The position numbers and the translations under genes are program-made. A stretch of 12,391 bases of DNA from a virus. Its lineage: Duplodnaviria; Heunggongvirae; Uroviricota; Caudoviricetes. This document shows positions 1 through 12,391 of the stretch, piece by piece. The stretch lies in the IMG/VR virus record IMGVR_UViG_2698536312_000012; one strand, 5' to 3'. How positions within the stretch are numbered: the first letter of the stretch is position 1; every line of letters starts with the position of its first letter. Under the pieces are notes generated by a model. That model was not told the DNA's origin and made no database searches. It was given only the letters and a program-made list of their open reading frames with translations.

Positions 1-25
1 ACACTAAATCAGTAAGTTGGCAGCA

Positions 26-1231
26 TCACCCCGCCACAGAACAATTATTGCTTTTGCCGTTGATGACAATAAAGTTTTTATCGCAGGCGTACCNNNNNNN
101 NNNNNNNNNNNNNNNNNNNNNNNNNNNNNNNNNNNNNNNNNNNNNNNNNNNNNNNNNNNNNNNNNNNNNNNNNNNNNNNNNNNNNNNNNNNNNNNNNNNN
201 NNNNNNNNNNNNNNNNNNNNNNNNNNNNNNNNNNNNNNNNNNNNNNNNNNNNNNNNNNNNNNNNNNNNNNNNNNNNNNNNNNNNNNNNNNNNNNNNNNNN
301 NNNNNNNNNNNNNNNNNNNNNNNNNNNNNNNNNNNNNNNNNNNNNNNNNNNNNNNNNNNNNNNNNNNNNNNNNNNNNNNNNNNNNNNNNNNNNNNNNNNN
401 NNNNNNNNNNNNNNNNNNNNNNNNNNNNNNNNNNNNNNNNNNNNNNNNNNNNNNNNNNNNNNNNNNNNNNNNNNNNNNNNNNNNNNNNNNNNNNNNNNNN
501 NNNNNNNNNNNNNNNNNNNNNNNNNNNNNNNNNNNNNNNNNNNNNNNNNNNNNNNNNNNNNNNNNNNNNNNNNNNNNNNNNNNNNNNNNNNNNNNNNNNN
601 NNNNNNNNNNNNNNNNNNNNNNNNNNNNNNNNNNNNNNNNNNNNNNNNNNNNNNNNNNNNNNNNNNNNNNNNNNNNNNNNNNNNNNNNNNNNNNNNNNNN
701 NNNNNNNNNNNNNNNNNNNNNNNNNNNNNNNNNNNNNNNNNNNNNNNNNNNNNNNNNNNNNNNNNNNNNNNNNNNNNNNNNNNNNNNNNNNNNNNNNNNN
801 NNNNNNNNNNNNNNNNNNNNNNNNNNNNNNNNNNNNNNNNNNNNNNNNNNNNNNNNNNNNNNNNNNNNNNNNNNNNNNNNNNNNNNNNNNNNNNNNNNNN
901 NNNNNNNNNNNNNNNNNNNNNNNNNNNNNNNNNNNNNNNNNNNNNNNNNNNCATCAGCAGGCCTTATCTTTTGTTTAGAGAAAGTCATCTTTACCCAGCT
1001 TTCTCTGGACGCATCATCAGTAAGAGCAGCCTGCGAATCTCCCATACTTACAACCTGGCTGGGCCTTATCCATCGCCCCAGCCCCTCAACCGCACCAGCA
1101 TAAAACATGACAAAAATTGTTTTTGCAGCTATTTCCCGAATTAAATATCCACGATTCTCAGTCCCTTCAGGGAAAATTAATTGTAATCTTTCCCGGATAA
1201 CATTCAATGGGGGAACAACAGGCAGATTCAT
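26..1231 (-). CDS. Methyltransferase-coupled partner protein, candidate restriction endonuclease or other effector; most of the body is masked by N
   Basis: ATG at 1231-1229 overlaps the methyltransferase stop (ATGA), implying translational coupling. The visible N-terminal 93 aa (MNLPVVPPLNVIRERLQLIFPEGTENRGYLIREIAAKTIFV...) look protein-like. The frame is consistent with TGA at 28-26, but continuity through the 858-nt N-run cannot be verified and another frame also stays open to the window edge. Confidence 0.45.
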   Translation of the reverse strand: MNLPVVPPLNVIRERLQLIFPEGTENRGYLIREIAAKTIFVMFYAGAVEGLGRWIRPSQVVSMGDSQAALTDDASRESWVKMTFSKQKIRPADXXXXXXXXXXXXXXXXXXXXXXXXXXXXXXXXXXXXXXXXXXXXXXXXXXXXXXXXXXXXXXXXXXXXXXXXXXXXXXXXXXXXXXXXXXXXXXXXXXXXXXXXXXXXXXXXXXXXXXXXXXXXXXXXXXXXXXXXXXXXXXXXXXXXXXXXXXXXXXXXXXXXXXXXXXXXXXXXXXXXXXXXXXXXXXXXXXXXXXXXXXXXXXXXXXXXXXXXXXXXXXXXXXXXXXXXXXXXXXXXXXXXXXXXXXXXXXXXXXXXXXXXXXXXXXXXXXXXXXXXXXXXXXXYACDKNFIVINGKSNNCSVAG

Positions 1232-3060
1232 GCAATCATCACTCCATAGAAACCAGCGATAGTTCTCTCAATAATCCGTCTGTGGACGCCAGCATCAATT
1301 AACGATTGAATCTCCATCACCTGCTCCAGAGAAGGCAACGGGATTGAATTCAATTCATAGGCCGAAACAGCAACACTTCCGCTTATACACCTGAACGCCC
1401 GATCGACAACATGCGAATTAAGTAGCATATCAATAACATCAGGGCGAACCGCAGAGAACAATCCGTTTGAATATACAATATTAATATGGTTTTCAACTAC
1501 TACGCCACCAGTTTCATCTATAAATCCCTGAGGTAAAATTGCCGCTAAAATCCTTCTGTCCTGTTCCTTCGATGTTGTCCGCTGAACAAGCACACATTCA
1601 GATTTTGTCACAAGGAAACCCTGTTGTGGGGTTATATCGATATAGGGAACATGATTTTTTCTGTCTGCACTAAAACGAAAACCAGCTGAAGTTATTGATT
1701 CCGCCCAGACTAATGGGTAGCTATTTTTTCCTTTCGTCGTACGCAACTGCGACTTAAATCGATTCCAGACTAACTGACCTGTAGAGACTGAGTATCCCAG
1801 ATCAGCTAAACGCGTAGACATCTGTTTTAATACATTAAGAAAACAGGCATCATCTTTAACGCGTGGCAAAAGCCACGTTGCTCCACCTTTTTCTATATCA
1901 ACATTACCTATTTTCTCAATTTTTGCTTTGTTCAACCCCTTAGGGACAAGTGAGGATACCTGGGCCCGAACTTTATGTTCTCCCGCCTTGAATGCTGTCA
2001 ACATTGTTTCCTGGAGAACATCGTCAAAGACCCCATCCCTGTCAGTGACGAAATCAAGGGCATACGGAGTAGTTTTTTCGGTCAAAAGGGTTCGCAGCGC
2101 GGTGAAATACTGCCCACCAAGAAAAGAAGTTGGCGTAAGAAATGCAATAACTCCTGTTTTCTCTTTAACCATGCGAACAGCTAAGTCGGTGAACAATCCA
2201 TATAGATTTGCATGACCAAATAACGAACGAGAATATTTTTCTCTCGTTTTAATATCGAGAGTGACACGTCCGTAAGGCGGATTCCCTACCACAAGATCAT
2301 AACCAGAAAATTTATCTTGCTGAAGCGCATCAGCAACAATAATTGTATCTTCAGGCAATCTACGTTTTACCTTTACACATAGTGGCATTAGTACAGATTC
2401 GAGCAATACCAAACTCATCCAAGCCGCAAATGGATCGATTTCTATCCCCTTTAAACGACGACTGATTCTCCTCAACATCCATTCAGGGGAAGACCCCTTG
2501 TCTTTTTTTAACATTCGAATGGCTACTGGTGCCAAAAATGCACCGCCACCACACGCAGGATCAATAACCGATGCATGAGAAAAATCAACACCAGACTTTT
2601 CAGCCAGGTCCAAGAGACGCGCTACCAAAGGTGGGGGGGTATAGTAAGCCCCCAATTCCGAACGGTAAGCGGATGGCAGCATTACCGTATAAATTGACCC
2701 AATCAGATATCCAGCGTCCTCCGCCGGAAATTGAGCAATAAGCTCACCTGTTCGTTCAGCGAGCTCGCGTGCATCACATGGAATGTCTTCTATGTAAACA
2801 GTGTGCGGTACTGCCCTCATTTTAATGCTGCTTTTTTGCTTTTTTGCAAGGGTATCCCAATATGCAGCTACGATGCTGAAGCAGTATGAGCGGGCATGCA
2901 TCAACCTTGACTGCCCGGTTTTGTAATTGCCCGCATAACCTTTGGCCATGGCTTTACAAGTTTGATATCTTTCCAGATTAGAAAACTCATTATCTGTAAA
3001 AAAATCAAAATGTTGCACATTCATAATGTAAAATCCTAATGTATCAAACATGCGGGCCAT
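1228..3060 (-). CDS. N6-adenine DNA methyltransferase, gamma class (Eco57I/TaqI-like), with C-terminal target-recognition region
   Basis: 610-aa ORF with motif order GAYYTPPPLV (motif X-like), DPACGGGAFL (AdoMet motif I) and VVGNPPYGR (catalytic motif IV), then a ~300-aa C-terminal region with TaqI-C-like features (GQLVWNRF). Start could be ATG 3060 or 3051; both have a weak RBS. Confidence 0.9.
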   Translation of the reverse strand: MARMFDTLGFYIMNVQHFDFFTDNEFSNLERYQTCKAMAKGYAGNYKTGQSRLMHARSYCFSIVAAYWDTLAKKQKSSIKMRAVPHTVYIEDIPCDARELAERTGELIAQFPAEDAGYLIGSIYTVMLPSAYRSELGAYYTPPPLVARLLDLAEKSGVDFSHASVIDPACGGGAFLAPVAIRMLKKDKGSSPEWMLRRISRRLKGIEIDPFAAWMSLVLLESVLMPLCVKVKRRLPEDTIIVADALQQDKFSGYDLVVGNPPYGRVTLDIKTREKYSRSLFGHANLYGLFTDLAVRMVKEKTGVIAFLTPTSFLGGQYFTALRTLLTEKTTPYALDFVTDRDGVFDDVLQETMLTAFKAGEHKVRAQVSSLVPKGLNKAKIEKIGNVDIEKGGATWLLPRVKDDACFLNVLKQMSTRLADLGYSVSTGQLVWNRFKSQLRTTKGKNSYPLVWAESITSAGFRFSADRKNHVPYIDITPQQGFLVTKSECVLVQRTTSKEQDRRILAAILPQGFIDETGGVVVENHINIVYSNGLFSAVRPDVIDMLLNSHVVDRAFRCISGSVAVSAYELNSIPLPSLEQVMEIQSLIDAGVHRRIIERTIAGFYGVMIA

Positions 3061-3274
3061 AACATCTCATGGTGGCGCATAGCAAACTGGCCCGAAGAAT
3101 ATCACGCACCAAGTCGATCTCATAACCCGTTATGACAATAAATCTTTGTAGCTGAACTCACTTGGTGATTTGTCAATCATTCCTGGCCTCCAGTTCGTCC
3201 TGAATCTCTTTATCGAGTTCACCGTATTTGTTAGTCCTCATCACTCACGACTTGACTTCCAGAAATAACCTTGA

Positions 3275-3631
3275 TTATTCGGGGCTATATTTTGTCACCC
3301 TGCGTATCCGCGCTTTCGCATTACGCTCAATCTGGATTAGCTTTTCTATATTTTTTCGCCTTTCCCGCTCCTCCTGGCGCAAGAGCCTTACATCATCTGC
3401 CAGTCTGGTTTCTCTTTTCGCCACAGAGAGCATCCAGTCAAATGGCTCCACAACTGCACCGCAAATTTTACAGCGGACCTGACGCTCTTTTTCGTCAACC
3501 CGGACAGAAGCGTGATGGCAATATGGTCTTTCCGATGGCTCATAAAGAAAATTAACCTGATTACGAGGGTTATCCTCTTTTACCGGAAATAAAACAATAT
3601 TGCTTAACTCATCTTCTGGTTTTATTTCCAT
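3275..3631 (-). CDS. Hypothetical zinc-ribbon protein with basic, coiled-coil-like C-terminus
   Basis: ATG at 3631 preceded by a strong SD (AGGAGAGGAG). 118 aa with C-H-H ... C-x-x-C (YCHHASV...RCKICG) and an Arg/Lys/Glu-rich tail. The ORF track extends to a GTG at 3688 without an RBS. Confidence 0.6.
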   Translation of the reverse strand: MEIKPEDELSNIVLFPVKEDNPRNQVNFLYEPSERPYCHHASVRVDEKERQVRCKICGAVVEPFDWMLSVAKRETRLADDVRLLRQEERERRKNIEKLIQIERNAKARIRRVTKYSPE

Positions 3632-3771
3632 GCTCCTCTCCTTTGATGCGAATGCCAGCGGTAATTGAAGCCTGATAGCTAATTTCACTCACAGTACCGC
3701 CTCCTGAAAATCACCCTGATAGAAAGCCGGTACACGCTGCATAACTTCACTCTTCCGGCACTCGCGACAGA

Positions 3772-4095
3772 TTATGTTCTGATGTCTGTCGTAGCNNNNN
3801 NNNNNNNNNNNNNNNNNNNNNNNNNNNNNNNNNNNNNNNNNNNNNNNNNNNNNNNNNNNNNNNNNNNNNNNNNNNNNNNNNNNNNNNNNNNNNNNNNNNN
3901 NNNNNNNNNNNNNNNNNNNNNNNNNNNNNNNNNNNNNNNNNNNNNNNNNNNNNNNNNNNNNNNNNNNNNNNNNNNNNNNNNNNNNNNNNNNNNNNNNNNN
4001 NNNNNNNNNNNNNNNNNNNNNNNNNNNNNNNNNNNNNNNNNNNNNNNNNNNNCCTTAATTTTTTCCCGCTCTTCCTGTGTAAATACTTTTGCCAT
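3772..4095 (-). CDS. Hypothetical small protein (about 107 aa), mostly masked by N
   Basis: ATG at 4095 lies 17 nt after the stop of the upstream gene; visible N-terminus MAKVFTQEEREKIK and C-terminus ATTDIRT-stop are in one frame if the N-run length is true. The interior cannot be checked. Confidence 0.35.
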   Translation of the reverse strand: MAKVFTQEEREKIKXXXXXXXXXXXXXXXXXXXXXXXXXXXXXXXXXXXXXXXXXXXXXXXXXXXXXXXXXXXXXXXXXXXXXXXXXXXXXXXXXXXXXXATTDIRT

Positions 4096-4110
4096 AAGCG
4101 CCCCCGGCAA

Positions 4111-4836
4111 TCACTTTTCCGACACAATACGACCGGAGGAATCGACAATCTGTCGAACAATATCCCGGTGCTTGTTCAGCTCCCGCAACGCGGCGCAGAC
4201 ACGCTCCCACTTCTGGACATGACTTTTCGCCCGACGCAGTTCGCGGTTTGCCATATGCAGCGATGGTAAAACCAGGTCATCCGCTTGCGTTTCGGTGAAC
4301 GATGGCAACGACTGCACAATGTCCGCCACAGTTTCTGTTTTAATTTCTTCCTGTGTTGCAGCTTCCTGTACCGGTAACGCAACACCTGCTGGCTGAGGAA
4401 AGACTTTACCATCCGTTTCCGCTATGGATGCGGCTTTCGGCTCTGCCGGTAAATCAGCGCCCGGTATGCAGTACCGAAATTTACCGCCCTGATTCACGCG
4501 AATCAGACGCCCTTTGCTGATTGCCATGGCCAGCGATGAATTCGCCCGGCGGGAGGTAATCCCGAACATCAGTGCCAGCTCATCCGCCGTTTGTGGGCCA
4601 TGTTGTTCAATCGCCTCAGTCAGCATTTGCGCTGTCACTTTCGGTACCGGTGACACTGGTTCACTTTCACCAGCCTGAATCAGCCACCACATCGAACCCT
4701 TGTTATCCGCTTCACCACGGCGCTTCAGTTTCCACAGTTCGTTGACCGCATCTTCACGGCTGATTCCAAGGCGGGACGCCACCACATGTGAAGAGGCTCT
4801 TTTCAGTGCTTTCAGTGCGTCAAATACAGTTTCCAT
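4111..4836 (-). CDS. Hypothetical phage protein with two winged-helix-like segments
   Basis: ATG at 4836 preceded by GGAGG at about 9 nt, immediately after the DnaC-like stop (4858-4860). 241 aa, acidic central linker, protein-like composition. Confidence 0.6.
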
Positions 4837-4857
4837 TAAAACATCCTCCAACAAAAA

Positions 4858-5604
4858 TTACTTCACAACTCCCGGAAAGCTGACATTTGAACGCCAGCTA
4901 TCCCAGTTAAACGTCACCCACCGACAACCGTTCATGGTCATGCGGTCCATAATCCTCTCACCAAGAAGCGTGCTCATTGCGGCATGATTCAGGTTTGTTA
5001 ACATCCCGACACTGCACAGTGATGCTGTCCGGCGATCAATTATCTGGTGCAATACCACCTGCTCGTTTTTCGTCTCCCGCTGAATGCCTATTTCATCCAG
5101 GACCAGCAAATCAACCCCGCAAAGCTCCTGTAAAAATTTTTCACCGGATTTGCCGTTGTCGTAGCTGTCATGCAACACGCTCATGACATCAGACACGGTG
5201 ACGATAATCACGCTGCGCCCCTTCGCCATCAGCCAGTTACCCATCGCCGCTGCAAGGTGATTTTTCCCGGTGCCGGTTTTACCGCTGAACACAAAATTCG
5301 TGCACCCGGTCATCAGTTCGTCAGCTATGGATTTGGCCTGGCTCAGCGCGTATTTTTGCCCGTCGTTCTGCACCTGATAATTCGCAAACGAGCATTTGCT
5401 GTGCAGAGGCTGGATGCCCGAACGATTCAGGATTTTTTCCACCCGCAACTGGCGATTCTGGCGGTTAATCTCCTCGCTGCGTTTTCGTCCTTCAGCAAGT
5501 TGCCATTCCCGCCACTCCTCCACCGTCCGGTACGGTGGAACCGCCCCCTGTGGTGCAAGTCTGTGAATACGTTCAAGAACCCCGGCTGCCGCAATGTTTT
5601 TCAT
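4858..5604 (-). CDS. DnaC/IstB-like replication ATPase (helicase-loader analog, YdaV-like)
   Basis: Walker A GKTGTGKNHLA and Walker B LLVLDEIG; 248 aa; lies directly downstream of the O-like gene; RBS GGGGGTGA upstream of ATG 5604. Confidence 0.85.
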   Translation of the reverse strand: MKNIAAAGVLERIHRLAPQGAVPPYRTVEEWREWQLAEGRKRSEEINRQNRQLRVEKILNRSGIQPLHSKCSFANYQVQNDGQKYALSQAKSIADELMTGCTNFVFSGKTGTGKNHLAAAMGNWLMAKGRSVIIVTVSDVMSVLHDSYDNGKSGEKFLQELCGVDLLVLDEIGIQRETKNEQVVLHQIIDRRTASLCSVGMLTNLNHAAMSTLLGERIMDRMTMNGCRWVTFNWDSWRSNVSFPGVVK

Positions 5605-5610
5605 GCCACA

Positions 5611-6675
5611 TCACCCCCTGAATCCCGGCGGAATTTCGGTATCCGGTTCAGAAATATGATTCACACAACGCTGGTTGTTCGTGCCGCTTACCGGGAGCAA
5701 CCAGGGGTTTTCAAAATTCCGGTCCGGCCCAAAAAACGTCGTCGCTCGCTGAACAAATTCCGTTCCCGCTTTCCCGGTCGCCGCCAGGTATCTCGCGTAA
5801 CGCCTCACACCATCCAGCATGGTCTCTGGTGGCACCCCCTCGCGCAATCTGGCCTTCCAGGCACTGAATGCGGATTTCTTCGGGTTTGCCCCGGCACGCA
5901 ACGGGTATTCCCGCCAGACCTGTTCGAACACATCCGGATAATCCACTCGTCCCACAGGCTGCCCGGTGTTTTCCGGGGCTACCCGATCGGCTTCCCGCTG
6001 AATGGCGGAATCGGCTTCAGGCTGCTGCAGTTGGAGTGATTGCTCCGGCCTTGCGGTCATCACCTGCTGCACAGCGCCCGAATCGGCTTTCAGCGCATAC
6101 GCTGAATCGGCTTCCGGTGTCGAGCCTGCTGGCTGACCAGGATTGACGGTCTGAACATCCCCTGCCTGGTTCGTGGCGTTTTTTACGCCATGGACCATAG
6201 TGTTTTGATCTTCTTTATCTGTATCTTTATCTGTATCTGTCGTGACTCGTCGTGACATGTGCGTGACATTTCGTGACGCGCCGTGACAATCGCCATTTTG
6301 TTCCCGCTTTCTTTCCCTCTCTCGCTGCGCCCTCTTGCGCTCTGCAGGAGATTTTGCGGTTTGCGAAATATTGCCGTTGTCCTCTTTAAGCACCTGGCGT
6401 TTTTCCCATCCAGTGATTAAATCACCATCAAGTACCCGCCCCTGCATCGTCTGCAAAATTGAATCAATTACCTCTTCTGTCACGTCGAGCGCACTTGCCA
6501 AATCTTCTGTCGTGACATCAATGTGACCTCGCGTGACATTTCGTGACGCGCTCACCAGGAGGTGGATATACACTGCCATCACTGTTGCAATTGGCTGCCC
6601 TGACACCCTGGCAATTGTTCGCCACTTAGGGTCATTTGGCATGTCATGCCATAATCTGAGCCAGGCGTTAGCCAT
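5611..6675 (-). CDS. Replication initiation protein, O-like/YdaU-like, with DnaT-like C-terminal region
   Basis: ATG 6675 preceded by AGAGGTGA; 354 aa; N-terminal conserved segment WLRLWHDMPNDPKWRTIA, low-complexity acidic middle encoded by iteron repeats, C-terminal AGANPKKSAFSAWKARL...FGPDRNFENPW. Position between the CII-analog and the DnaC-like gene. Confidence 0.75.
   Translation of the reverse strand: MANAWLRLWHDMPNDPKWRTIARVSGQPIATVMAVYIHLLVSASRNVTRGHIDVTTEDLASALDVTEEVIDSILQTMQGRVLDGDLITGWEKRQVLKEDNGNISQTAKSPAERKRAQRERERKREQNGDCHGASRNVTHMSRRVTTDTDKDTDKEDQNTMVHGVKNATNQAGDVQTVNPGQPAGSTPEADSAYALKADSGAVQQVMTARPEQSLQLQQPEADSAIQREADRVAPENTGQPVGRVDYPDVFEQVWREYPLRAGANPKKSAFSAWKARLREGVPPETMLDGVRRYARYLAATGKAGTEFVQRATTFFGPDRNFENPWLLPVSGTNNQRCVNHISEPDTEIPPGFRG
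6241..6287. repeat. Iteron-like array A: five CGTGAC repeats at 10-11 bp phasing (candidate ori)
   Basis: CGTGAC at 6241, 6251, 6262, 6272, 6282; flanked on the left by tandem 12-bp tttatctgtatc x2 (6213-6236); lies inside the O-like gene as in lambda ori. Confidence 0.6.
6511..6551. repeat. Iteron-like array B: four (C/T)GTGAC repeats at 10-11 bp phasing, including a 21-bp exact copy of part of array A
   Basis: Repeats at 6511, 6522 (TGTGAC), 6532, 6542; 6531-6551 gcgtgacatttcgtgacgcgc is identical to 6261-6281. Confidence 0.6.
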
Positions 6676-6746
6676 ACTCACCTCTTCTGATACCGAATCT
6701 TTTTACTCACGAGTTGCCGGGAGCGATTCGATATGGCTATTGTCAG

Positions 6747-7172
6747 TCAATGTACTGCCACAGCATTTCCTGCCGGGCCACCACGGTTCATCTGATTGAA
6801 ACCGGCGATTGCCACTGCGACAAAATCATCAGCGTCTCTCACCAGTCGTTCATGCGTCTCCACCAGTTCCCGAAAATAAGCTGAACTGTGGCTGCGCATT
6901 CGAGCCACCAGCGGAGGTGGCATTGCCCTTTCGATCGCAGGTAACAACGCCTGAATTTTTTCAACAGCGTCAGGGGTGTCTTTATCCAGCCAACGGAAAA
7001 TCTTTTGGGTGTTGAGATAAAGCGTGTTGTGCTTGCTGTCGTTATGCAGAACCGGAAACGTCATTCCCAGTTCGAAATAAACCCTGGTTATTTCAGCTGC
7101 CGGAACTTTTTCACCGTCCGGATGCGCCCAGGCTTTCATCGCCATGCGGATGTGTTCATGCTTGATTTTCAT
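6747..7172 (-). CDS. ydaT: YdaT-like regulator (functional CII analog of Rac/CP-933P-type prophages)
   Basis: 141 aa; start ATG 7172 overlaps the upstream stop (ATGA); the sequence (MKIKHEHIRMAMKAWAHPDGEKVPAAEITRVYFELG...) matches my recollection of YdaT; position is immediately downstream of the Cro-like gene. Confidence 0.7.
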   Translation of the reverse strand: MKIKHEHIRMAMKAWAHPDGEKVPAAEITRVYFELGMTFPVLHNDSKHNTLYLNTQKIFRWLDKDTPDAVEKIQALLPAIERAMPPPLVARMRSHSSAYFRELVETHERLVRDADDFVAVAIAGFNQMNRGGPAGNAVAVH

Positions 7173-7432
7173 GAATCAACCCCCGCCGATGGTTGTGTGT
7201 TAGCCTGAAACTCAGCAGGCAAGCCGTCAGTTGGGTTGGGGTAGGTTTTACTGTCAATCTCATGTGGGGTCACCACCCATCCCGTTGCTTCACACCAACG
7301 TAATATTTTTTCTCCTGTAAGTTTTGCACGCCCCGTTATAACGTGGCTGACCATCCCTTGGGATGCGCCAACAATCTCAGCAAATGAACTCTGGGTTATA
7401 TGAAAATGATGCAAATATTCTCCAAGATTCAT
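7169..7432 (-). CDS. ydaS: Cro-like HTH regulator (YdaS-like)
   Basis: HTH segment ITQSSFAEIVGASQGMVSHVITG; first gene of the leftward operon leaving the divergent operator region; ATG 7432 preferred over the TTG at 7459 used by the ORF track. Confidence 0.7.
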   Translation of the reverse strand: MNLGEYLHHFHITQSSFAEIVGASQGMVSHVITGRAKLTGEKILRWCEATGWVVTPHEIDSKTYPNPTDGLPAEFQANTQPSAGVDS

Positions 7433-7468
7433 AATCCGCCCTATGTGATGTGTTACCAATGCATAATT

Positions 7469-7533
7469 AATAGCACTGTTATTTTTAAAAGTAAATAGTG
7501 ATGCTATTTCAAAGTGATTAGCAATCTTATTAG
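7469..7533. promoter_or_regulatory. Divergent operator/promoter region with three related operator sites
   Basis: aATAGCactgTTATTt (7469-7484), aaATAGtgatgCTATTt (7493-7509), aTTAGCaatcTTATT (7518-7532); about 24-26 bp spacing; leftward promoter candidate TTTACT-17-TATTAA overlaps the sites. Confidence 0.55.
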
Positions 7534-7543
7534 AATTGGATGT

Positions 7544-8044
7544 ATGAAAAGAAAATCATTGTCAGACACCGACCTCAACGCCGCCAGAAGACTGAAAGAA
7601 ATCTGGATGGCAAAGAAATCTCAGTTGGGATTGACTCAGGAACGTGCGGCGGAAATTATGGGGTTTTCAACACAAGGGGCGGTAAGTCACTACCTAAATG
7701 GTCAAACCCCACTAAACCTTGAGGCTGTTCTAAAGTTTGCTGGCTTACTGAAAGTTCCCCCTGAGTCAATCAGGCCAGACATGGTAGATTTGCTGCAAAT
7801 TGCAAGGATGTATTGTCGAGAACCACAGCAAGATAACATAGTCGCATTACCAGCAGACACAGAACAAACAGAGGATGAACTACCGTTTGCCGTAGAGCCG
7901 ATGGAACGAGATTTAATCCATACGTTCAGAGCTTTTCCGAAAGAAGATCAAGAACACATGCTTCAGGAGATGAAAGATAAAAAAGAATCAATGGATCGTA
8001 CGGTTGCGCGGTGGTTAGCTGCACAAAAAGGCCGTCGCGCCTAA
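7544..8044 (+). CDS. paaR2: HTH (XRE-family) repressor, PaaR2-like regulator at the cI position
   Basis: HTH LTQERAAEIMGFSTQGAVSHYLNG; 166 aa from ATG 7544 (ORF track uses GTG 7514); first gene of a three-gene operon with antitoxin and ParE toxin; divergent from the Cro-like gene. Confidence 0.7.
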   Translation: MKRKSLSDTDLNAARRLKEIWMAKKSQLGLTQERAAEIMGFSTQGAVSHYLNGQTPLNLEAVLKFAGLLKVPPESIRPDMVDLLQIARMYCREPQQDNIVALPADTEQTEDELPFAVEPMERDLIHTFRAFPKEDQEHMLQEMKDKKESMDRTVARWLAAQKGRRA

Positions 8045-8063
8045 ATCAGAGGAGATATGTAAA

Positions 8064-8258
8064 ATGAGTACAGTCCTTTCCCCAATGGTTTCAGAATTTG
8101 AGACAGTTGAGCAAGAAAATAGTTACAACGAATGGCTGCGGGCCAAAGTAGCAGCAAGCCTCGCGGATCCCCGCCCGGCGATTCCGCATGATGAGGTAAT
8201 GGCGGAAATGGAACAAATTATTGCCCAAATTGCTGCTGCAACTCACAGAGGTGAATAA
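8064..8258 (+). CDS. paaA2: Small antitoxin (PaaA2-like) of the ParE toxin
   Basis: 64 aa; AGGAGA SD 9 nt upstream; stop overlaps the toxin start (TAATG); acidic, helix-prone sequence typical of antitoxins. Confidence 0.75.
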   Translation: MSTVLSPMVSEFETVEQENSYNEWLRAKVAASLADPRPAIPHDEVMAEMEQIIAQIAAATHRGE

Positions 8259-8548
8259 TGTTACCCGTTTTATGGCTACCATCTGCTCGTGATGATTTGC
8301 GCCAGATCGTAGCCTACATAGCTAAAGAAAATCCCGCGGCAGCACGCAGAATGAAAATTCGAATTGAAACATCCGTTTTGCCGCTCACAGAGCATCCTTA
8401 CCTGTATCCTCCAAGCGAGCGAGTTCTTGGTCTTCGTGAAATTGTAACTCATCCTAACTACATCATCCTTTACCGAGTAACAGCATCAAGCATAGAAGTA
8501 GTAAATATTGTGCATTCTCGAAGACAGTATCCAGGCAAAAACAGTTAA
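8258..8548 (+). CDS. parE2: ParE/RelE-superfamily toxin (ParE2-like)
   Basis: 96 aa; ParE-like segments WLPSARDDLRQIVAYIAKENPAAARRM and EVVNIVHSRRQYP; translationally coupled to the upstream antitoxin. Confidence 0.85.
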   Translation: MLPVLWLPSARDDLRQIVAYIAKENPAAARRMKIRIETSVLPLTEHPYLYPPSERVLGLREIVTHPNYIILYRVTASSIEVVNIVHSRRQYPGKNS

Positions 8549-8564
8549 TTATTCCCGCCGACAG

Positions 8565-8587
8565 AACCACCTTAGGGTGGTTTTTTC
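8565..8587 (+). terminator. Rho-independent terminator of the repressor-antitoxin-toxin operon
   Basis: 7-bp stem aaccacc / ggtggtt with loop ttag, followed by a T-run (tttttt). Confidence 0.7.
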
Positions 8588-8603
8588 TTGCCCCAACAAA
8601 AAC

Positions 8604-8647
8604 AATAGCGATGCTATTTACATCAAAAAATAATGATGCTATTTTTT
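8604..8647. promoter_or_regulatory. Second operator cluster (two sites) with candidate rightward promoter for the ydfA-dicF-dicB operon
   Basis: aATAGCgatgCTATTt (8604-8619) and aATAAtgatgCTATTt (8630-8645), same ATAG-N5-CTAT motif as at 7469-7533; TTTACA-17-TATTTT overlaps the second site. Confidence 0.5.
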
Positions 8648-8824
8648 CAGGCGTCAACCCACCCCGCCCCACAGAATGCAGGGCAATACTTCGAGTTACC
8701 AGACAGTGGTCAGGGGTTAAGTAGCCAGCCCGAGGCGTAAGAACATGACGGCAGGGTTCAATCTTTAACTATGCAGCAGGTTTTTTGTTCCGCCACCCCG
8801 GCGTTAAGGGGAAATGAGGTCAGC

Positions 8825-8977
8825 ATGGATACTATCGATCTTGGCAACAACGAATCTCTGGTGTGCGGCGTGTTCCCTAACCAGGATGGAACGTTTACCG
8901 CCATGACGTATACCAAAAGCAAAACGTTTAAAACCGAATCTGGCGCGCGTTGCTGGTTAGCCAGAAACACTGACTGA
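8825..8977 (+). CDS. ydfA: YdfA-like small protein (Qin-type dicB operon, first gene)
   Basis: ATG 8825 with GAGGT SD 5 nt upstream; 50 aa (MDTIDLGNNESLVCGVFPNQDGTFTAMTYTKSK...); the ORF track 5' extension from 8771 lacks an RBS. Confidence 0.6.
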   Translation: MDTIDLGNNESLVCGVFPNQDGTFTAMTYTKSKTFKTESGARCWLARNTD

Positions 8978-8988
8978 TGAGGCTGACG

Positions 8989-9354
8989 ATGGAATTTAAA
9001 GATTTACCGTCTGATGTACAGAAAACAGCAGCTCATACATTGCATTCTGTGCTGCGAGAAATCGGGAAAGATATTGCAAGCGAGCCAGCAAAAGATCTGG
9101 CCCGGAAAATCAAGACCGCTTTCGTTGAGCTTTATAATGTTGGCACTGACTCTGAAACTGTCGAGACCAAGACCGTAAGTTCACCAATATTCTCACTTGA
9201 GCCAAGCGTATTATCAGGTGAAATATGCACCGAGATTTCCAGCGAACTGCTTCCGGTAATACGAGAAGCAATTCGCCGTCGCGGTTTGGATGGAAGTTAT
9301 GATCATGACGTTCTGCAAGTTCTCAGGACAATGGTGACTTCACTGGGGATTTGA
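8989..9354 (+). CDS. Hypothetical protein (Qin ydfB/ydfC-region equivalent)
   Basis: ATG 8989 with GAGG SD; 121 aa; follows the ydfA-like gene by 12 nt; alternative start ATG 8977. Confidence 0.55.
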   Translation: MEFKDLPSDVQKTAAHTLHSVLREIGKDIASEPAKDLARKIKTAFVELYNVGTDSETVETKTVSSPIFSLEPSVLSGEICTEISSELLPVIREAIRRRGLDGSYDHDVLQVLRTMVTSLGI

Positions 9355-9523
9355 TCCCTGCGTCCTCTAAGCTTTTGATATAGCGGTCCTCCAAGAAGCG
9401 GTAAATTTTGTCGAAATCATCTTTTCCCTCTGGTTTATTCAGAGGATTACAGGACCCGTAAGTAGCGGCATACATTTCAACCGTTTTATCAAAAATATAA
9501 GAGACAAATTCTTCTTTAGTCAT
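9323..9523 (-). CDS. Candidate small protein (66 aa) convergent with and overlapping the upstream plus-strand gene
   Basis: ATG 9523 preceded by AAGGAAATCTAT (good SD); protein-like composition (MTKEEFVSYIFDKTVEMYAATYG...); overlaps 9323-9354 of the plus-strand gene, so it remains uncertain. Confidence 0.3.
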   Translation of the reverse strand: MTKEEFVSYIFDKTVEMYAATYGSCNPLNKPEGKDDFDKIYRFLEDRYIKSLEDAGIKSPVKSPLS

Positions 9524-9708
9524 ATAGATTTCCTTCTTGGTTATTCGGGATAAGAAGGATACCACCTCGCCTGACGTGGTTAAAAGCAGGCACACAACGC
9601 GAAATGACGCGGCGGTAAGTATGGCGGAGTTATTCCTTCCCCGTTGAGGACACCGGGTTGTCAGGTTGACCATACGCTTAAGTGACAACCACGCCACAAC
9701 ACTCCATG

Positions 9709-9764
9709 TTGATTGGTACCTTTGGCGGCATCAGTTTCATTGCTGGCTGATGTCCGCCCTTTTT
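9709..9764 (+). ncRNA. dicF: DicF-like small RNA with intrinsic terminator
   Basis: tttggcggcatcagtttcattgctggctgatgtccgccctttttaaagtgaattttgtgatg closely resembles my recollection of K-12 DicF and its 3' flank; hairpin GGCGGCATCAG / CTGATGtCCGCC followed by a T-run; located between the ydfA-like gene and dicB as in Qin. Confidence 0.7.
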
Positions 9765-10060
9765 AAAGTGAATTTTGTGATGCGGTGAATGCGGCTCAGC
9801 GCACGCGGCACAGTTAAAAAGCGATTAGTTCCCCCGTATCGGGTGGTTATGGGTTTCCCTGTATCCGGCGTTAATTGTTAACTGGTTAACGTCACCTGGA
9901 GGCACCAGGCACCGCATCAACAAAGTTCACTTCGGTGATGAAAGGAAAGAGAAAATGTTGAATGTAGCTATTGAAAACCAGAACGGGTGGAATTATAGTG
10001 CACCTGCACCTTATAAAACGGGTGCCGGGCGTGGAAACCCGAACGTTACTCGAGCGCATA

Positions 10061-10082
10061 GCCGCGCTGAAGCGGTTTTTTT
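10061..10082 (+). terminator. Candidate intrinsic terminator or attenuator hairpin in the Rha leader
   Basis: agCCGCgctgaaGCGG followed by seven T; additional flanking complementarity cgcata / tatgcg; short stem, so weak. Confidence 0.3.
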
Positions 10083-10251
10083 ATGCGTAATGCACAGCTC
10101 CATTCAAATTATGGTGGGATGTGCAGGGCAGTCGCAAGACTGGCCGGGTTCTCGAGTGACCGGTATTTCCACCCCTGTACGTCACACCACCCTTATGGTC
10201 GTGGAAAACCTCGGTGGTGAGTTAATTAACTTATCACTCGAGGATGCCATC

Positions 10252-10809
10252 ATGGCTACTATCCCTGCCCTTTCTCACCCTGACGTAACCATCGAAAATG
10301 GTCGCGCTGTCACTACGTCTATTGCGATCGCAGAGTTCTTTGGCAAGCGTCACGACAATGTGTTACGTGCCATCGCAAATACTGAATGCTCACCTGAATT
10401 TAACGCCCTCAATTTTGAGGACGTCACCTACACTGACGCCAAAGGCGAAAAACGCCCGATGTACCAAATCACCAAAAACGGCTTCGTTTTCCTGGTGATG
10501 GGATTCACTGGCAAAAAAGCCGCTGCATTTAAAGAAGCCTACATTGCTGAGTTCGATCGCATGGAGGCCGAACTGCGCCAGAATAACACCCCACCCACTG
10601 ACAAAATAATTCCAGGCGATGGCCGCACCCTGGTTGTTCACTTCGACGAACGCGGCAACATCAGATTCACCGAAACCGTTCCTGATGGCGCACGGGTCTG
10701 TACCATGGAGACTTTCCGGTTTTATCTGGAAGAACAGGGATGGACTCTTGTTAACCGGGGCGCAATTAAAAATATGACTGTAGAGCAATTACTCAAAATT
10801 CATTGTTGA
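10252..10809 (+). CDS. rha: Rha-family phage regulatory protein
   Basis: Rha-like segment AIAEFFGKRHDNVLRAIAN...MYQITKNGFVFLVMGFTGKKAAAFKEAYIAEFDRME; ATG 10252 with AGGA SD 7 nt upstream puts the domain near the N-terminus. The same frame is open back to an ATG at 9955 with a strong SD (AGGAAAGAG), so a 284-aa form is possible. Confidence 0.7.
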   Translation: MATIPALSHPDVTIENGRAVTTSIAIAEFFGKRHDNVLRAIANTECSPEFNALNFEDVTYTDAKGEKRPMYQITKNGFVFLVMGFTGKKAAAFKEAYIAEFDRMEAELRQNNTPPTDKIIPGDGRTLVVHFDERGNIRFTETVPDGARVCTMETFRFYLEEQGWTLVNRGAIKNMTVEQLLKIHC

Positions 10810-10819
10810 GGACGCGATA

Positions 10820-11008
10820 ATGGAAACGTTATTACCAAACGTTAATACGACTGAAGGTTGTTTTGAAATTGGTGTCACTATCAGTAACCCTGTATTTACT
10901 GAAGATGCCATTAACAAGAGAAAACACGAACGGGAGCTATTAAATAAAATATGCATTGTTTCAATGCTGGCTCGTTTGCGTCTGATGCAAAAAGGATGCT
11001 GGCGATGA
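10820..11008 (+). CDS. dicB: DicB cell-division inhibitor
   Basis: 62 aa (METLLPNVNTTEGCFEIGVTISNPVFTEDAINKRK...CIVSMLARLRLM) matching my recollection of DicB; GAGGA SD 7 nt upstream; stop overlaps the next start (ATGA). Confidence 0.8.
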   Translation: METLLPNVNTTEGCFEIGVTISNPVFTEDAINKRKHERELLNKICIVSMLARLRLMQKGCWR

Positions 11009-11196
11009 ATACAGCATTTGCACTCGTTCTGACCGTTATTCTTAATACGGGCGAACCAGCTGAACTGGTTACCGGAGTATACAACTCCATGAAAGAATGC
11101 GTGGCTGCTGCAGCTGAACAGAAAATTCCCGGTAACTGTTATCCGGTTGATAAAATCATTCACCAGGATAATAAAGAAGTCCCGGCAGGTCTTTAA
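11005..11196 (+). CDS. ydfD: YdfD-like small lysis-associated protein
   Basis: 63 aa with N-terminal hydrophobic segment (MNTAFALVLTVILNTGEP...) and conserved KIPGNCYPVDKIIHQDN; AAGGA SD 8 nt upstream; ATGA overlap with dicB. Confidence 0.75.
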   Translation: MNTAFALVLTVILNTGEPAELVTGVYNSMKECVAAAAEQKIPGNCYPVDKIIHQDNKEVPAGL

Positions 11197-11300
11197 AGCA
11201 GCCACGTAATAAATATCCGGTTTCATTTTTATATGCCAGCAATGGCAGGGATTTGTTCACCCTTAAATCTGTAATGAGGTTAAAACAAAATGAGTNNAAA

Positions 11301-12362
11301 ATGAGTAAAGTCTTTATTTGCGCCGCCATTCCGGACGAAAAGGCAACAAAAGAAGAAGGCGCTAAACCTGTAGCCACTGCCATTGAAGCCGGCGACGAAC
11401 GCCGCGCCCGCGCAAAATTTCACTGGCAATTCCTGGAACATTATCCGGCTGCTCAGGACTGCGCTTATAAATTTATTGTCTGCGAGGATAAACCTGGTAT
11501 ACCCCGCCCTGCCCTCGATTCCTGGGATGCTGAATATATGCAGGAAAACCGCTGGGATGAGGAGTCTGCTTCCTTTGTCCCGGTTGAGACTGAATCCGAA
11601 CCGATGAACGTCACTTTTGACAAGCTGGCCCCTGAAGTACAGAACGCTGTCATGGTTAAGTTCGACACATGTGAAAACATCACCGTTGATATGGTGATTA
11701 GCGCGCAGGAACTGTTGCAGGAAGACATGGCAACATTCGACGGACATATCGTTGAAGCGTTGATGAAAATGCCAGAAGTTAACGCCATGTGTCCGGAGAT
11801 TAAACTGCATGCCATCGGGTGGATTAAGCATAAATGTAAGCCTGGTGCAAAATGGCCAGAAATTCAGGCAGAGATGCGCATCTGGAAAAAATGTCGCGAA
11901 GGTGAACGCAAGGAAACCGGAAAATACACGTCTGTTGTTGATCTCGCCCGTGCCAGAGCCAATCAACAGCACACTGAAAATTCAACAGGAAAAATCAGCC
12001 CGGCCATTGCTGCCATTCATCGCGAATACAAGCAGACATGGAAAACACTGGATGACGAACTGGCCTACGCTCTCTGGCCTGGTGATGTGGATGCCGGAAA
12101 CATTGACGGCAGCATCCATCGCTGGGCAAAAAATGAAGTTATCGACAACGACCGCGAAGACTGGAAGCGTATCTCGGCATCAATGCGCAAACAGCCTGAT
12201 GCCCTTCGCTACGACCGCCAGACTATTTTTGGCCTTGTCCGTGAACGTCCGATCGACATTCACAAAGACCCTGTGGCACTGAACAAATACATTACTGAAT
12301 ACCTGACTACAAAGGGCGTGTTTGAAGATGAAGGAACAAATCAGAGCGCAACTGATACTTGA
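11301..12362 (+). CDS. Hypothetical 353-aa phage protein (YdfE-like, intact form)
   Basis: Long ORF with protein-like composition; start ATG 11301 (MSKVFICAAIPDEK) preferred; the upstream in-frame ATGs (11253, 11274) lack an RBS and the stretch contains two N bases (11296-11297). Confidence 0.65.
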   Translation: MSKVFICAAIPDEKATKEEGAKPVATAIEAGDERRARAKFHWQFLEHYPAAQDCAYKFIVCEDKPGIPRPALDSWDAEYMQENRWDEESASFVPVETESEPMNVTFDKLAPEVQNAVMVKFDTCENITVDMVISAQELLQEDMATFDGHIVEALMKMPEVNAMCPEIKLHAIGWIKHKCKPGAKWPEIQAEMRIWKKCREGERKETGKYTSVVDLARARANQQHTENSTGKISPAIAAIHREYKQTWKTLDDELAYALWPGDVDAGNIDGSIHRWAKNEVIDNDREDWKRISASMRKQPDALRYDRQTIFGLVRERPIDIHKDPVALNKYITEYLTTKGVFEDEGTNQSATDT

Positions 12363-12391
12363 GGTGTACTGGCAATAGCGGACACTACCAT

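Follow-up and report, generated by a model that had tools for sequence, protein, structure and literature searches.

The window analysed here, meaning the whole stretch of 12,391 nucleotides of caudoviricete DNA, holds on its minus strand, at about positions 130-3270, what its genes and motifs predict, with high probability, to be a self-contained two-gene type II restriction-modification cassette. A leader of about 245 nt is followed by the gene for a 598-aa methyltransferase and then by that for a 360-aa endonuclease. In the lambdoid prophage that carries it, the cassette occupies the variable cargo slot 3' of the replication genes, flanked by parE and by a conserved gene encoding a 118-aa protein. 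Runs of N mask positions 94-951 and 3796-4052, and the long mechanical open reading frames at 4-1231 and 3747-4222 were rejected as artefacts of translation through these runs. The features are as follows.

1-30, minus strand: IS1 terminal inverted repeat, abutting and truncating parE (matches of the 30-mer)
31-93, plus strand: parE (toxin of a ParDE toxin-antitoxin module), 3' part only; it flanks the cassette on the left and runs on into the N mask
952-1231, minus strand: BsuBI/PstI-family endonuclease gene, first 93 codons readable (Pfam); the remainder, about 149-951, is N-masked
1228-3024, minus strand: N6-adenine DNA methyltransferase gene, 598 aa (Pfam, motifs, M.TaqI match)
3025-3270, minus strand: non-coding leader or upstream region, part of the cassette (cross-genus alignment, BLAST extent)
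3271-3275, no strand: right-hand cassette junction, coinciding with the stop codon of the 118-aa gene (start of homology in insert-lacking prophages)
3275-3631, minus strand: conserved backbone gene for the zinc-ribbon-like 118-aa protein
3688-4110, minus strand: DUF977 gene, mostly masked (annotation taken from the related E. coli locus L001)
4086-7295, minus strand: replication block with DUF1627, DnaC-like loader, replisome organizer and YdaT genes (Pfam, GC segmentation)

The methyltransferase matches the Pfam families Eco57I (1.7e-13) and N6_Mtase (2.1e-9), carries motif I as DPACGGG at residue 155 and motif IV as NPPY at residue 248, and has a catalytic core resembling that of its PDB relative M.TaqI. 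Translation most likely begins at the ATG at 3024 and not at 3060, where the 610-aa mechanical, RefSeq-style open reading frame starts, because nearly all homologues are 598 aa long and, in Klebsiella and Citrobacter, indels disrupt the frame that begins at the upstream ATG. At 1231-1228 the tetranucleotide ATGA combines the start codon of the endonuclease gene with the overlapping methyltransferase stop. The readable part of the endonuclease matches Pfam BsuBI_PstI_RE_N (E = 1.2e-9), and the intact 360-aa endonuclease of L001 carries both the N-terminal HTH domain, BsuBI_PstI_RE_N (E = 1e-30), and the catalytic domain, BsuBI_PstI_RE (E = 9e-45). The locus thus combines what marks a BsuBI/PstI type II system: an endonuclease of this family, an N6-adenine methyltransferase with SAM-binding and NPPY motifs, and a conserved adjacent arrangement of the two. 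The sequence-only reading had described a methyltransferase region; the methyltransferase is indeed present, although as part of an operon with an endonuclease and not as a lone gene. The window offers no clue to specificity through site avoidance, since CTGCAG occurs three times against 2.7 expected and is not depleted.

Because most of the endonuclease gene is masked, we considered that the methyltransferase might effectively be an orphan here, with the endonuclease inactivated and the methyltransferase serving phage self-protection against host restriction or acting as an epigenetic regulator. Compared with its counterparts in L001 and in the second related locus, L003, the masked stretch is shorter by 34 nt, which is not a multiple of three; an IS1 has inserted in parE about 100 nt away; and a related BsuBI-like endonuclease, that of phage ArgO145, carries a frameshift according to its annotation, so that decay of such genes does occur. 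However, the 93 readable codons are intact and encode residues identical to those of the intact L001 endonuclease, the readable remainder of the cassette differs from L001 at a single nucleotide in 2,319, and the 34-nt difference could fall in the 40-nt spacer between parE and the endonuclease gene or in the 3' end of parE. We therefore regard inactivation as unlikely and treat the locus as a restriction-modification pair.

Comparison with L001, whose copy is annotated in RefSeq, and with other E. coli prophages delimits the cassette. At the left end, the parE fragment is 98.4% identical to L001 9046-9106, within an annotated RelE/ParE toxin gene whose protein matches Pfam ParE_toxin. The parE genes of L001 and L003 align with window positions 31-91 and not with 1-30. 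These first 30 positions instead match, with 100% identity, about 56,600 sites across 4,308 E. coli genomes and at least 5,000 plasmids; in plasmid R100 the 30-mer lies 25 nt outside the IS1B transposase coding sequence. The window thus probably begins at a contig edge at an IS1 repeat. The left junction itself coincides with the parE stop codon (L001 9143/9144), the cassette adding four codons to parE. On the right, homology to insert-lacking prophages starts at window position 3271 in one (L002) and at L001 12324, equivalent to window 3275, in another (L015). The comparison with prophages lacking the insert, which the sequence-only reading had proposed as a way to define the junctions, accordingly put the right one at 3271-3275, at the stop of the 118-aa gene. 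The module limits of 952 and 3060 given in that reading do not hold: 952 is merely the end of a mask, the right edge is at 3270/3271 and the left edge lies under the mask.

Within the cassette, identity to L001 is 99.96%, and on the side of the 118-aa gene it continues with one mismatch through position 3687. Seventeen of the 19 mismatches to L001 are crowded into 3688-3785, near-identity collapsing within the DUF977 gene, and the replication block is only 90.9% identical to L001. Of 5,426 complete E. coli genomes, two have the restriction-modification part, 3,271 have the right flank and 369 have the parDE left flank. E. coli FDAARGOS_943 and VL7S7 are among the carriers of the cassette. The protein encoded by the conserved right-flank gene has a weak match to Zn_Ribbon_TF. 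Other cargo occupies the same position elsewhere: in CFSAN004176, parE and the 118-aa gene enclose an unrelated gene for a 129-aa protein, and hokD or small genes are found at the cassette position in other prophages. No clean empty site, with parE joined to the 118-aa gene, was found among the 5,426 genomes.

The pair is also found well beyond E. coli. Klebsiella and Citrobacter carry it in lambdoid prophages, again in the post-replication slot, and the lambdoid-prophage copies across the three genera share 76-83% DNA identity. P2-like prophages of Serratia and Erwinia carry the pair in their gpA-portal slot; in Vibrio it adjoins a resolvase and a Gabija-like OLD-ATPase/UvrD pair, and in Burkholderia it adjoins an integrase. 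The methyltransferase-endonuclease pair was present at all nine loci examined, which come from seven other genera or contexts. Among phage records, none carried the cassette at the DNA level, the best phage protein matches being 26-28% identical; a search of GTDB genome contigs using methyltransferase peptides translated back into DNA gave a single, unrelated match of 24% identity, and a literature search on the RefSeq protein accessions found nothing.

The presence of related copies in the same slot of three genera, at the identities given above, points to a long association with this type of phage, and could be read as a sign that the cassette goes back to the ancestor of the prophage lineage, almost all relatives having since lost or replaced it. 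We consider this highly improbable: only two E. coli genomes have the restriction-modification part, whereas its flanks are present in hundreds to thousands, the near-identity of copies whose replication modules are 9% apart argues for recent horizontal spread, and the pair is also present outside lambdoid phages. Separate acquisition, as the sequence-only reading had proposed, is instead favoured because the pair is rare relative to its flanks, its junctions fall at gene boundaries, alternative cargo occupies the slot, and the same pair recurs in other genera. The direction of the event, gain as against loss in the relatives, is something we infer solely from parsimony.

Base composition, on which the proposal of separate acquisition had been founded, gives a less direct picture. 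The GC contents counted by hand for two sample lines were exact, at 41.7% for 2221-2280 and 56.7% for 5221-5280, and the methyltransferase is, as claimed, compositionally distinct from the replication genes. The open reading frame at 1228-3060 has 43.1% GC (GC3 0.37) and the interval 952-3060 has 43.3%, against 52.5% (GC3 0.62) for the DnaC-like gene and 52.4% for the whole replication block (4053-7459), a contrast far beyond chance (z = -6.4). The methyltransferase is also the lowest-GC 1.8-kb stretch of the window, with none of 134 others as low and the next at 44.6%. There is, however, no step at the module boundaries. The interval 3061-3795 has 45.3% GC, with no step at 3060 (z = -1.0 against the methyltransferase), and segmentation of the window placed none at the true edge of the cassette, 3270/3271. 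A simple binary segmentation had placed no change point at all, being blind because the high-GC block sits mid-window, and was replaced by an optimal-partition segmentation, which produced no false change point when run on shuffled sequence. The latter divides the window into 1-4085 (43.7% GC), 4086-7295 (53.1%) and 7296-12367 (46.3%). Its change point at 4085/4086 lies directly past the second mask, within the DUF977 gene, so that the GC step falls some 0.7-1 kb beyond the right end of the module, within conserved backbone genes. Strictly speaking, this is the outcome that the sequence-only reading had named as counting against it; separate acquisition is supported by distribution, junctions, alternative cargo and other hosts, but not by the GC profile of the window.

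These observations lend substance to the view that the GC contrast is mere lambdoid mosaic heterogeneity, in which the 53% GC replication module is the odd block and composition has no bearing on acquisition. Of three blocks, the replication block is high and the remainder has 44-46% GC, making the replication block as much a compositional outlier as the methyltransferase. The low-GC block also includes backbone genes present in thousands of genomes, the 118-aa gene having 44.5% GC. The genes on the immunity side have GC3 values of 0.33-0.40, near that of the methyltransferase. The replication block is, moreover, a different piece of DNA by its lower identity to L001. Since the AT-rich block takes in parE and the 118-aa gene as well, GC cannot delimit the cassette here. 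On the other hand, independent exchange of the cassette is shown by its presence and absence across genomes, its junctions at gene boundaries and the recurrence of the pair in unrelated mobile contexts, and in Klebsiella and Citrobacter the low-GC block begins within about 30 bp of the upstream edge of the cassette. In L001 the cassette has 43.9% GC against 49.2% elsewhere, and in every context compared the methyltransferase and endonuclease genes lie 4-10 GC points under their flanks. Mosaic heterogeneity is thus true as a caveat on the GC argument and not as a full account, and as the latter it is very unlikely. The low GC of the cassette is genuine but ordinary, and is no marker of the cassette edges in this window; taken alone, the GC contrast both mislocated and mislabelled the module.

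Upstream of the methyltransferase, 3025-3270 is 100% identical to L001 and L003. Alignment shows a leader core of about 110 nt (3025 to about 3135) that is nearly invariant between E. coli, Klebsiella and Citrobacter; homology with Klebsiella reaches about 3191, and the cross-genus BLAST extent corresponds to L001 9205-12240. The leader holds a candidate extended -10 element, TGATATTCT, at 3104-3096, while a simple scan found no consensus sigma-70 promoter upstream of the methyltransferase. No intrinsic terminator was detected around the cassette, nor any terminator-like hairpin in the 40-nt spacer past the endonuclease stop in L001. A structured RNA in the leader was rejected (fold z-score -1.19, not significant, with no Rfam match there), as was a coding remnant of a pre-cassette Klebsiella or Citrobacter gene at 3192-3270, for which tblastn and blastp gave no significant match. 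It is conceivable, though rather unlikely, that the near-invariant leader is a timing or regulatory element independent of a controller protein and that the pair's recognition sequence differs from CTGCAG; such a leader element, if real, would allow safe establishment of the cassette in a new lysogen.

Taken as a whole, the evidence makes it very probable that the cassette is optional defence cargo exchanged by lambdoid and P2-like prophages, operating as predicted from its sequence in the following way. The methyltransferase would methylate adenine in a CTGCAG-like palindrome in host and prophage DNA, and the endonuclease would cut incoming unmethylated DNA; this would shield the lysogen against other phages and penalise loss of the prophage. 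The methyltransferase-first order with coupled translation may favour methylation ahead of cleavage. Prophages would exchange the cassette by recombination at gene boundaries, and in any enterobacterial carrier it would keep its intrinsic AT-richness (42-45% GC, GC3 0.32-0.38), to which we attribute the contrast with the 53% GC replication genes. In more general terms, one AT-rich restriction-modification cassette appears to move among the cargo slots of two unrelated types of temperate phage, lambdoid and P2-like, and non-phage defence islands. The practical value of this finding is limited, and nothing in it would surprise a specialist.

The cassette can be set beside several known systems. 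A moron in the strict sense has its own promoter and its own terminator. The label had been applied to the module in the sequence-only reading and suits it in that its composition differs from that of its flanks in every host compared, although the immediate neighbours in this window are AT-rich too, but not with respect to a terminator of its own. Like morons and the defence hotspots of P2/P4 prophages (bioRxiv 10.1101/2021.01.21.427644), the cassette is optional, non-essential cargo in a fixed slot, with alternative cargos in relatives and a composition unlike its flanks. With regard to the strict moron, the cassette lacks a terminator hairpin in the L001 spacer; its leader holds a candidate extended -10 element but no consensus promoter in the scan, and no clean empty site was found among the genomes searched. 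Orphan phage methyltransferases, for example the Dam-like enzymes of Stx phages, share with the present system a phage-encoded m6A methyltransferase; here, unlike in those cases, an endonuclease gene overlaps the methyltransferase stop, and the enzyme is not an orphan by design. Among solved structures, SdaI (PDB 2ixs; E = 1.8e-16, residues 96-349) comes closest to the endonuclease; it belongs to the same BsuBI/PstI-type catalytic family, although the relationship is distant and consists of a phmmer match only. SdaI recognises CCTGCAGG, an 8-bp specificity that is not transferable to the present endonuclease.

The closest characterised case is EcoGIII, a PstI-like type II system of Stx2a prophages in E. 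coli O104:H4, O145 and O111, which methylates and cuts CTGCAG, protects against lambdoid phages and alters the methylome, and which has been described as a horizontally acquired cassette (PMC6602927, PMC3893438). Protein identity to the EcoGIII-type pair is only 26-28%, over part of the length, and the methyltransferase of the EcoGIII-type system in ArgO145 has 489 aa against 598 aa here. That pair belongs to the immunity region, where it directly follows the repressor gene, whereas the present pair occupies the post-replication slot. Both systems are nevertheless prophage-borne, with a methyltransferase gene followed by an endonuclease gene, a BsuBI/PstI-family endonuclease and an m6A methyltransferase. 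If the present pair is active, it would alter the methylome and phage susceptibility of its few E. coli carriers, as EcoGIII does in Stx2a lysogens.

The region at 952-3060 had been described, from hand counts on single 60-nt lines, as compositionally distinct from the neighbouring replication genes, and the counts proved exact on recounting (41.7% GC at 2221-2280 and 56.7% at 5221-5280), but the module boundaries attached to them did not hold. Position 952 is the mere edge of an N-masked stretch (94-951; 3796-4052 is likewise masked, with NN at 11296-11297), and the full-window GC profile has a genuine step at about 3800-4085 and none at 3060. The methyltransferase ORF (1228-3060), which is the lowest-GC 1.8-kb stretch in the window, has 43.1% GC and a GC3 of 0.37, compared with 52.5% and 0.62 for the DnaC-like gene, and its GC difference from the replication genes is large (z = -6.4; replication block 4053-7459, 52.4%). 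Its GC is only modestly lower than that of the right-hand 5 kb (46.5%; z = -2.5) and does not stand apart from that of the neighbouring 3061-3795 (45.3%; z = -1.0). Optimal-partition segmentation, with the penalty set to give no change points in shuffled sequence, yielded three segments, namely 1-4085 (43.7%), 4086-7295 (53.1%) and 7296-12367 (46.3%), and as a compositional outlier the high-GC replication block is on a par with the methyltransferase.

Between 7459 and the left mask every gene lies on the minus strand, in the following order:
From 7459, minus strand, genes for a Cro-like protein, YdaT, a replisome organizer and a DnaC-like loader
4111-4854, minus strand, DUF1627 gene
Masked, minus strand, DUF977 gene
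3631-3275, minus strand, 118-aa zinc-ribbon-like gene
Last, minus strand, the cassette of methyltransferase and endonuclease genes with its upstream leader

Pfam places the 610-aa ORF in the Eco57I and N6_Mtase families, and with its DPACGGG and NPPY motifs and an M.TaqI-like catalytic core it encodes an N6-adenine DNA methyltransferase. The RefSeq-style start, ATG 3060, probably adds 12 codons too many: nearly all homologues have a length of 598 aa and indels disrupt the upstream frame in Klebsiella and Citrobacter, so the true start is most likely the second ATG, at 3024. The methyltransferase stop overlaps the start of a second gene (ATGA, 1231-1228), of which 93 codons are visible, matching the N-terminal domain of BsuBI/PstI restriction endonucleases, and the rest is mostly under the mask. 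The same DNA occurs in two complete E. coli genomes, FDAARGOS_943 (locus L001) and VL7S7 (locus L003), where the second gene is intact and encodes a 360-aa endonuclease that has both BsuBI/PstI-family domains, its nearest solved structure being SdaI. Since 1 of the 2,319 visible cassette positions departs from L001 and the coupled gene is intact in both loci, the "methyltransferase region" reads as a complete type II restriction-modification operon, although the mask hides most of the endonuclease here. At 860 nt, that masked stretch is a net 34 nt shorter than L001 9107-10000 and its L003 counterpart (894 nt), a difference that falls within the 3' end of parE, the 40-nt spacer or the endonuclease gene. 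At the left end, window 1-30 is an IS1 terminal inverted repeat (reverse complement GGTGATGCTGCCAACTTACTGATTTAGTGT) joined to the parE 3' part at the position matching L001 9045/9046, so that an IS1 insertion disrupts parE in this genome; the window probably opens at the edge of a contig.

Of 5,426 complete E. coli genomes, 2 contain the restriction-modification part, 3,271 the stretch rightwards of window 3271, and 369 the left parDE module, whose match nearly always stops at L001 9143. In pairwise comparison both junctions fall on stop codons: on the left (L001 9143/9144) the canonical parE TAA is replaced and parE gains four codons, and the right junction is at the TAA that closes the 118-aa gene (window 3271-3275). 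These junctions delimit a cassette of about 3.18 kb, comprising the endonuclease, the methyltransferase and about 245 nt upstream. A joined-flank query found no clean empty site. One strain, CFSAN004176, has an unrelated 129-aa gene (48% GC) between the same two flanks, and in other prophages hokD or assorted small genes follow parDE or precede the 118-aa gene; the site is a cargo slot that takes different genes. Near-identity to L001 spans the 118-aa gene and breaks down at window 3688, the DUF977 stop codon, and identity is just 90.9% across the replication genes, which places the GC step close to a mosaic recombination boundary, one gene past the cassette. The DUF1627 gene, which lies between the DUF977 and DnaC-like genes, is absent at that position in L001 and so seems to mark a further mosaic insertion or replacement beside the step.

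In all contexts examined, methyltransferase homologues (60-89% identity) were followed by the same endonuclease. The pair occupies the same post-replication slot in lambdoid prophages of Klebsiella and Citrobacter, lies between gpA and the portal gene in P2-like prophages of Serratia and Erwinia, and adjoins an integrase in a Burkholderia island. In Vibrio mimicus (L013, 10900-14468) it forms a compact defence island, in which a resolvase gene overlapping the methyltransferase start precedes the pair and a Gabija-like OLD-type TOPRIM ATPase and UvrD helicase follow it. In every host the GC of the pair is 4-10 points under its flanks.

GC content of the pair and its flanks by host
E. coli, Klebsiella, Citrobacter, Vibrio: pair 42-45%
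Serratia: pair 39.5-41%, flanks 48-51%
Erwinia: pair about 42%, flanks 50-54%
Burkholderia: pair 57-59%, flanks 62-67%

In Klebsiella and Citrobacter, moreover, the start of the segmented low-GC block and the upstream edge of the cassette are no more than about 30 bp apart; in the E. coli relatives the block also covers parE and the 118-aa gene. Low GC is therefore an intrinsic, portable property of the cassette. The sequence-only reading of separate acquisition was right in substance on this comparative evidence, but the GC profile here does not show where the module begins and ends. That the cassette is a moron in the strict sense is unproven, as scans for consensus signals found neither a promoter ahead of the methyltransferase nor a terminator beyond the endonuclease. 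The leader of about 110 nt, nearly invariant in three genera and with no significant predicted RNA structure, holds what we read as a candidate extended -10 element, TGATATTCT (window 3104-3096). The upstream genes all point the same way as the cassette, so it may also be expressed by read-through from the early-right operon once the prophage is induced.

Further elements lie to the right, including a second toxin-antitoxin module (7514-8548) beside the immunity region and two RNAs (Rfam matches at gathering level) just upstream of a Rha-type regulator:
7514-8044, plus strand, HTH protein preceding PaaA2/ParE
8064-8258, plus strand, PaaA2 antitoxin (E = 3e-23)
8258-8548, plus strand, ParE toxin (E = 2e-17)
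10006-10082, plus strand, isrK Hfq-binding sRNA (61 bits)
10107-10194, plus strand, C4 antisense RNA (71 bits)
10255-10809, ORF part with the Phage_pRha domain

The HTH protein could be a PaaR2-type regulator instead of the phage repressor. A mechanical 284-aa ORF with an 'Ash' match probably over-extends across the isrK/C4 RNA genes, and the isrK/C4/Rha arrangement looks like the P1 c4/ant or Gifsy isrK-type antirepressor control module.

If the pair acts like characterised members of the family, the methyltransferase would methylate adenine in a palindrome resembling CTGCAG, and unmodified DNA would be cleaved by the endonuclease; the lysogen would thereby be shielded from other phages, and the prophage would gain an addiction function; the methyltransferase-first order and overlapping stop and start codons would favour methylation ahead of cleavage. 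CTGCAG was not depleted in the window. A characterised analogue of such a prophage-borne pair is EcoGIII on Stx2a prophages, which both methylates and cleaves CTGCAG, restricts lambdoid phages and changes the expression of host genes (PMC6602927, PMC3893438). The pair studied here shares only 26-28% identity with the EcoGIII-type pair and follows replication genes, whereas the latter adjoins the repressor gene, so that specificity and regulation are not transferable between them. The cassette, then, represents an ordinary lineage, annotated in RefSeq and uncharacterised, within a known class of prophage cargo.
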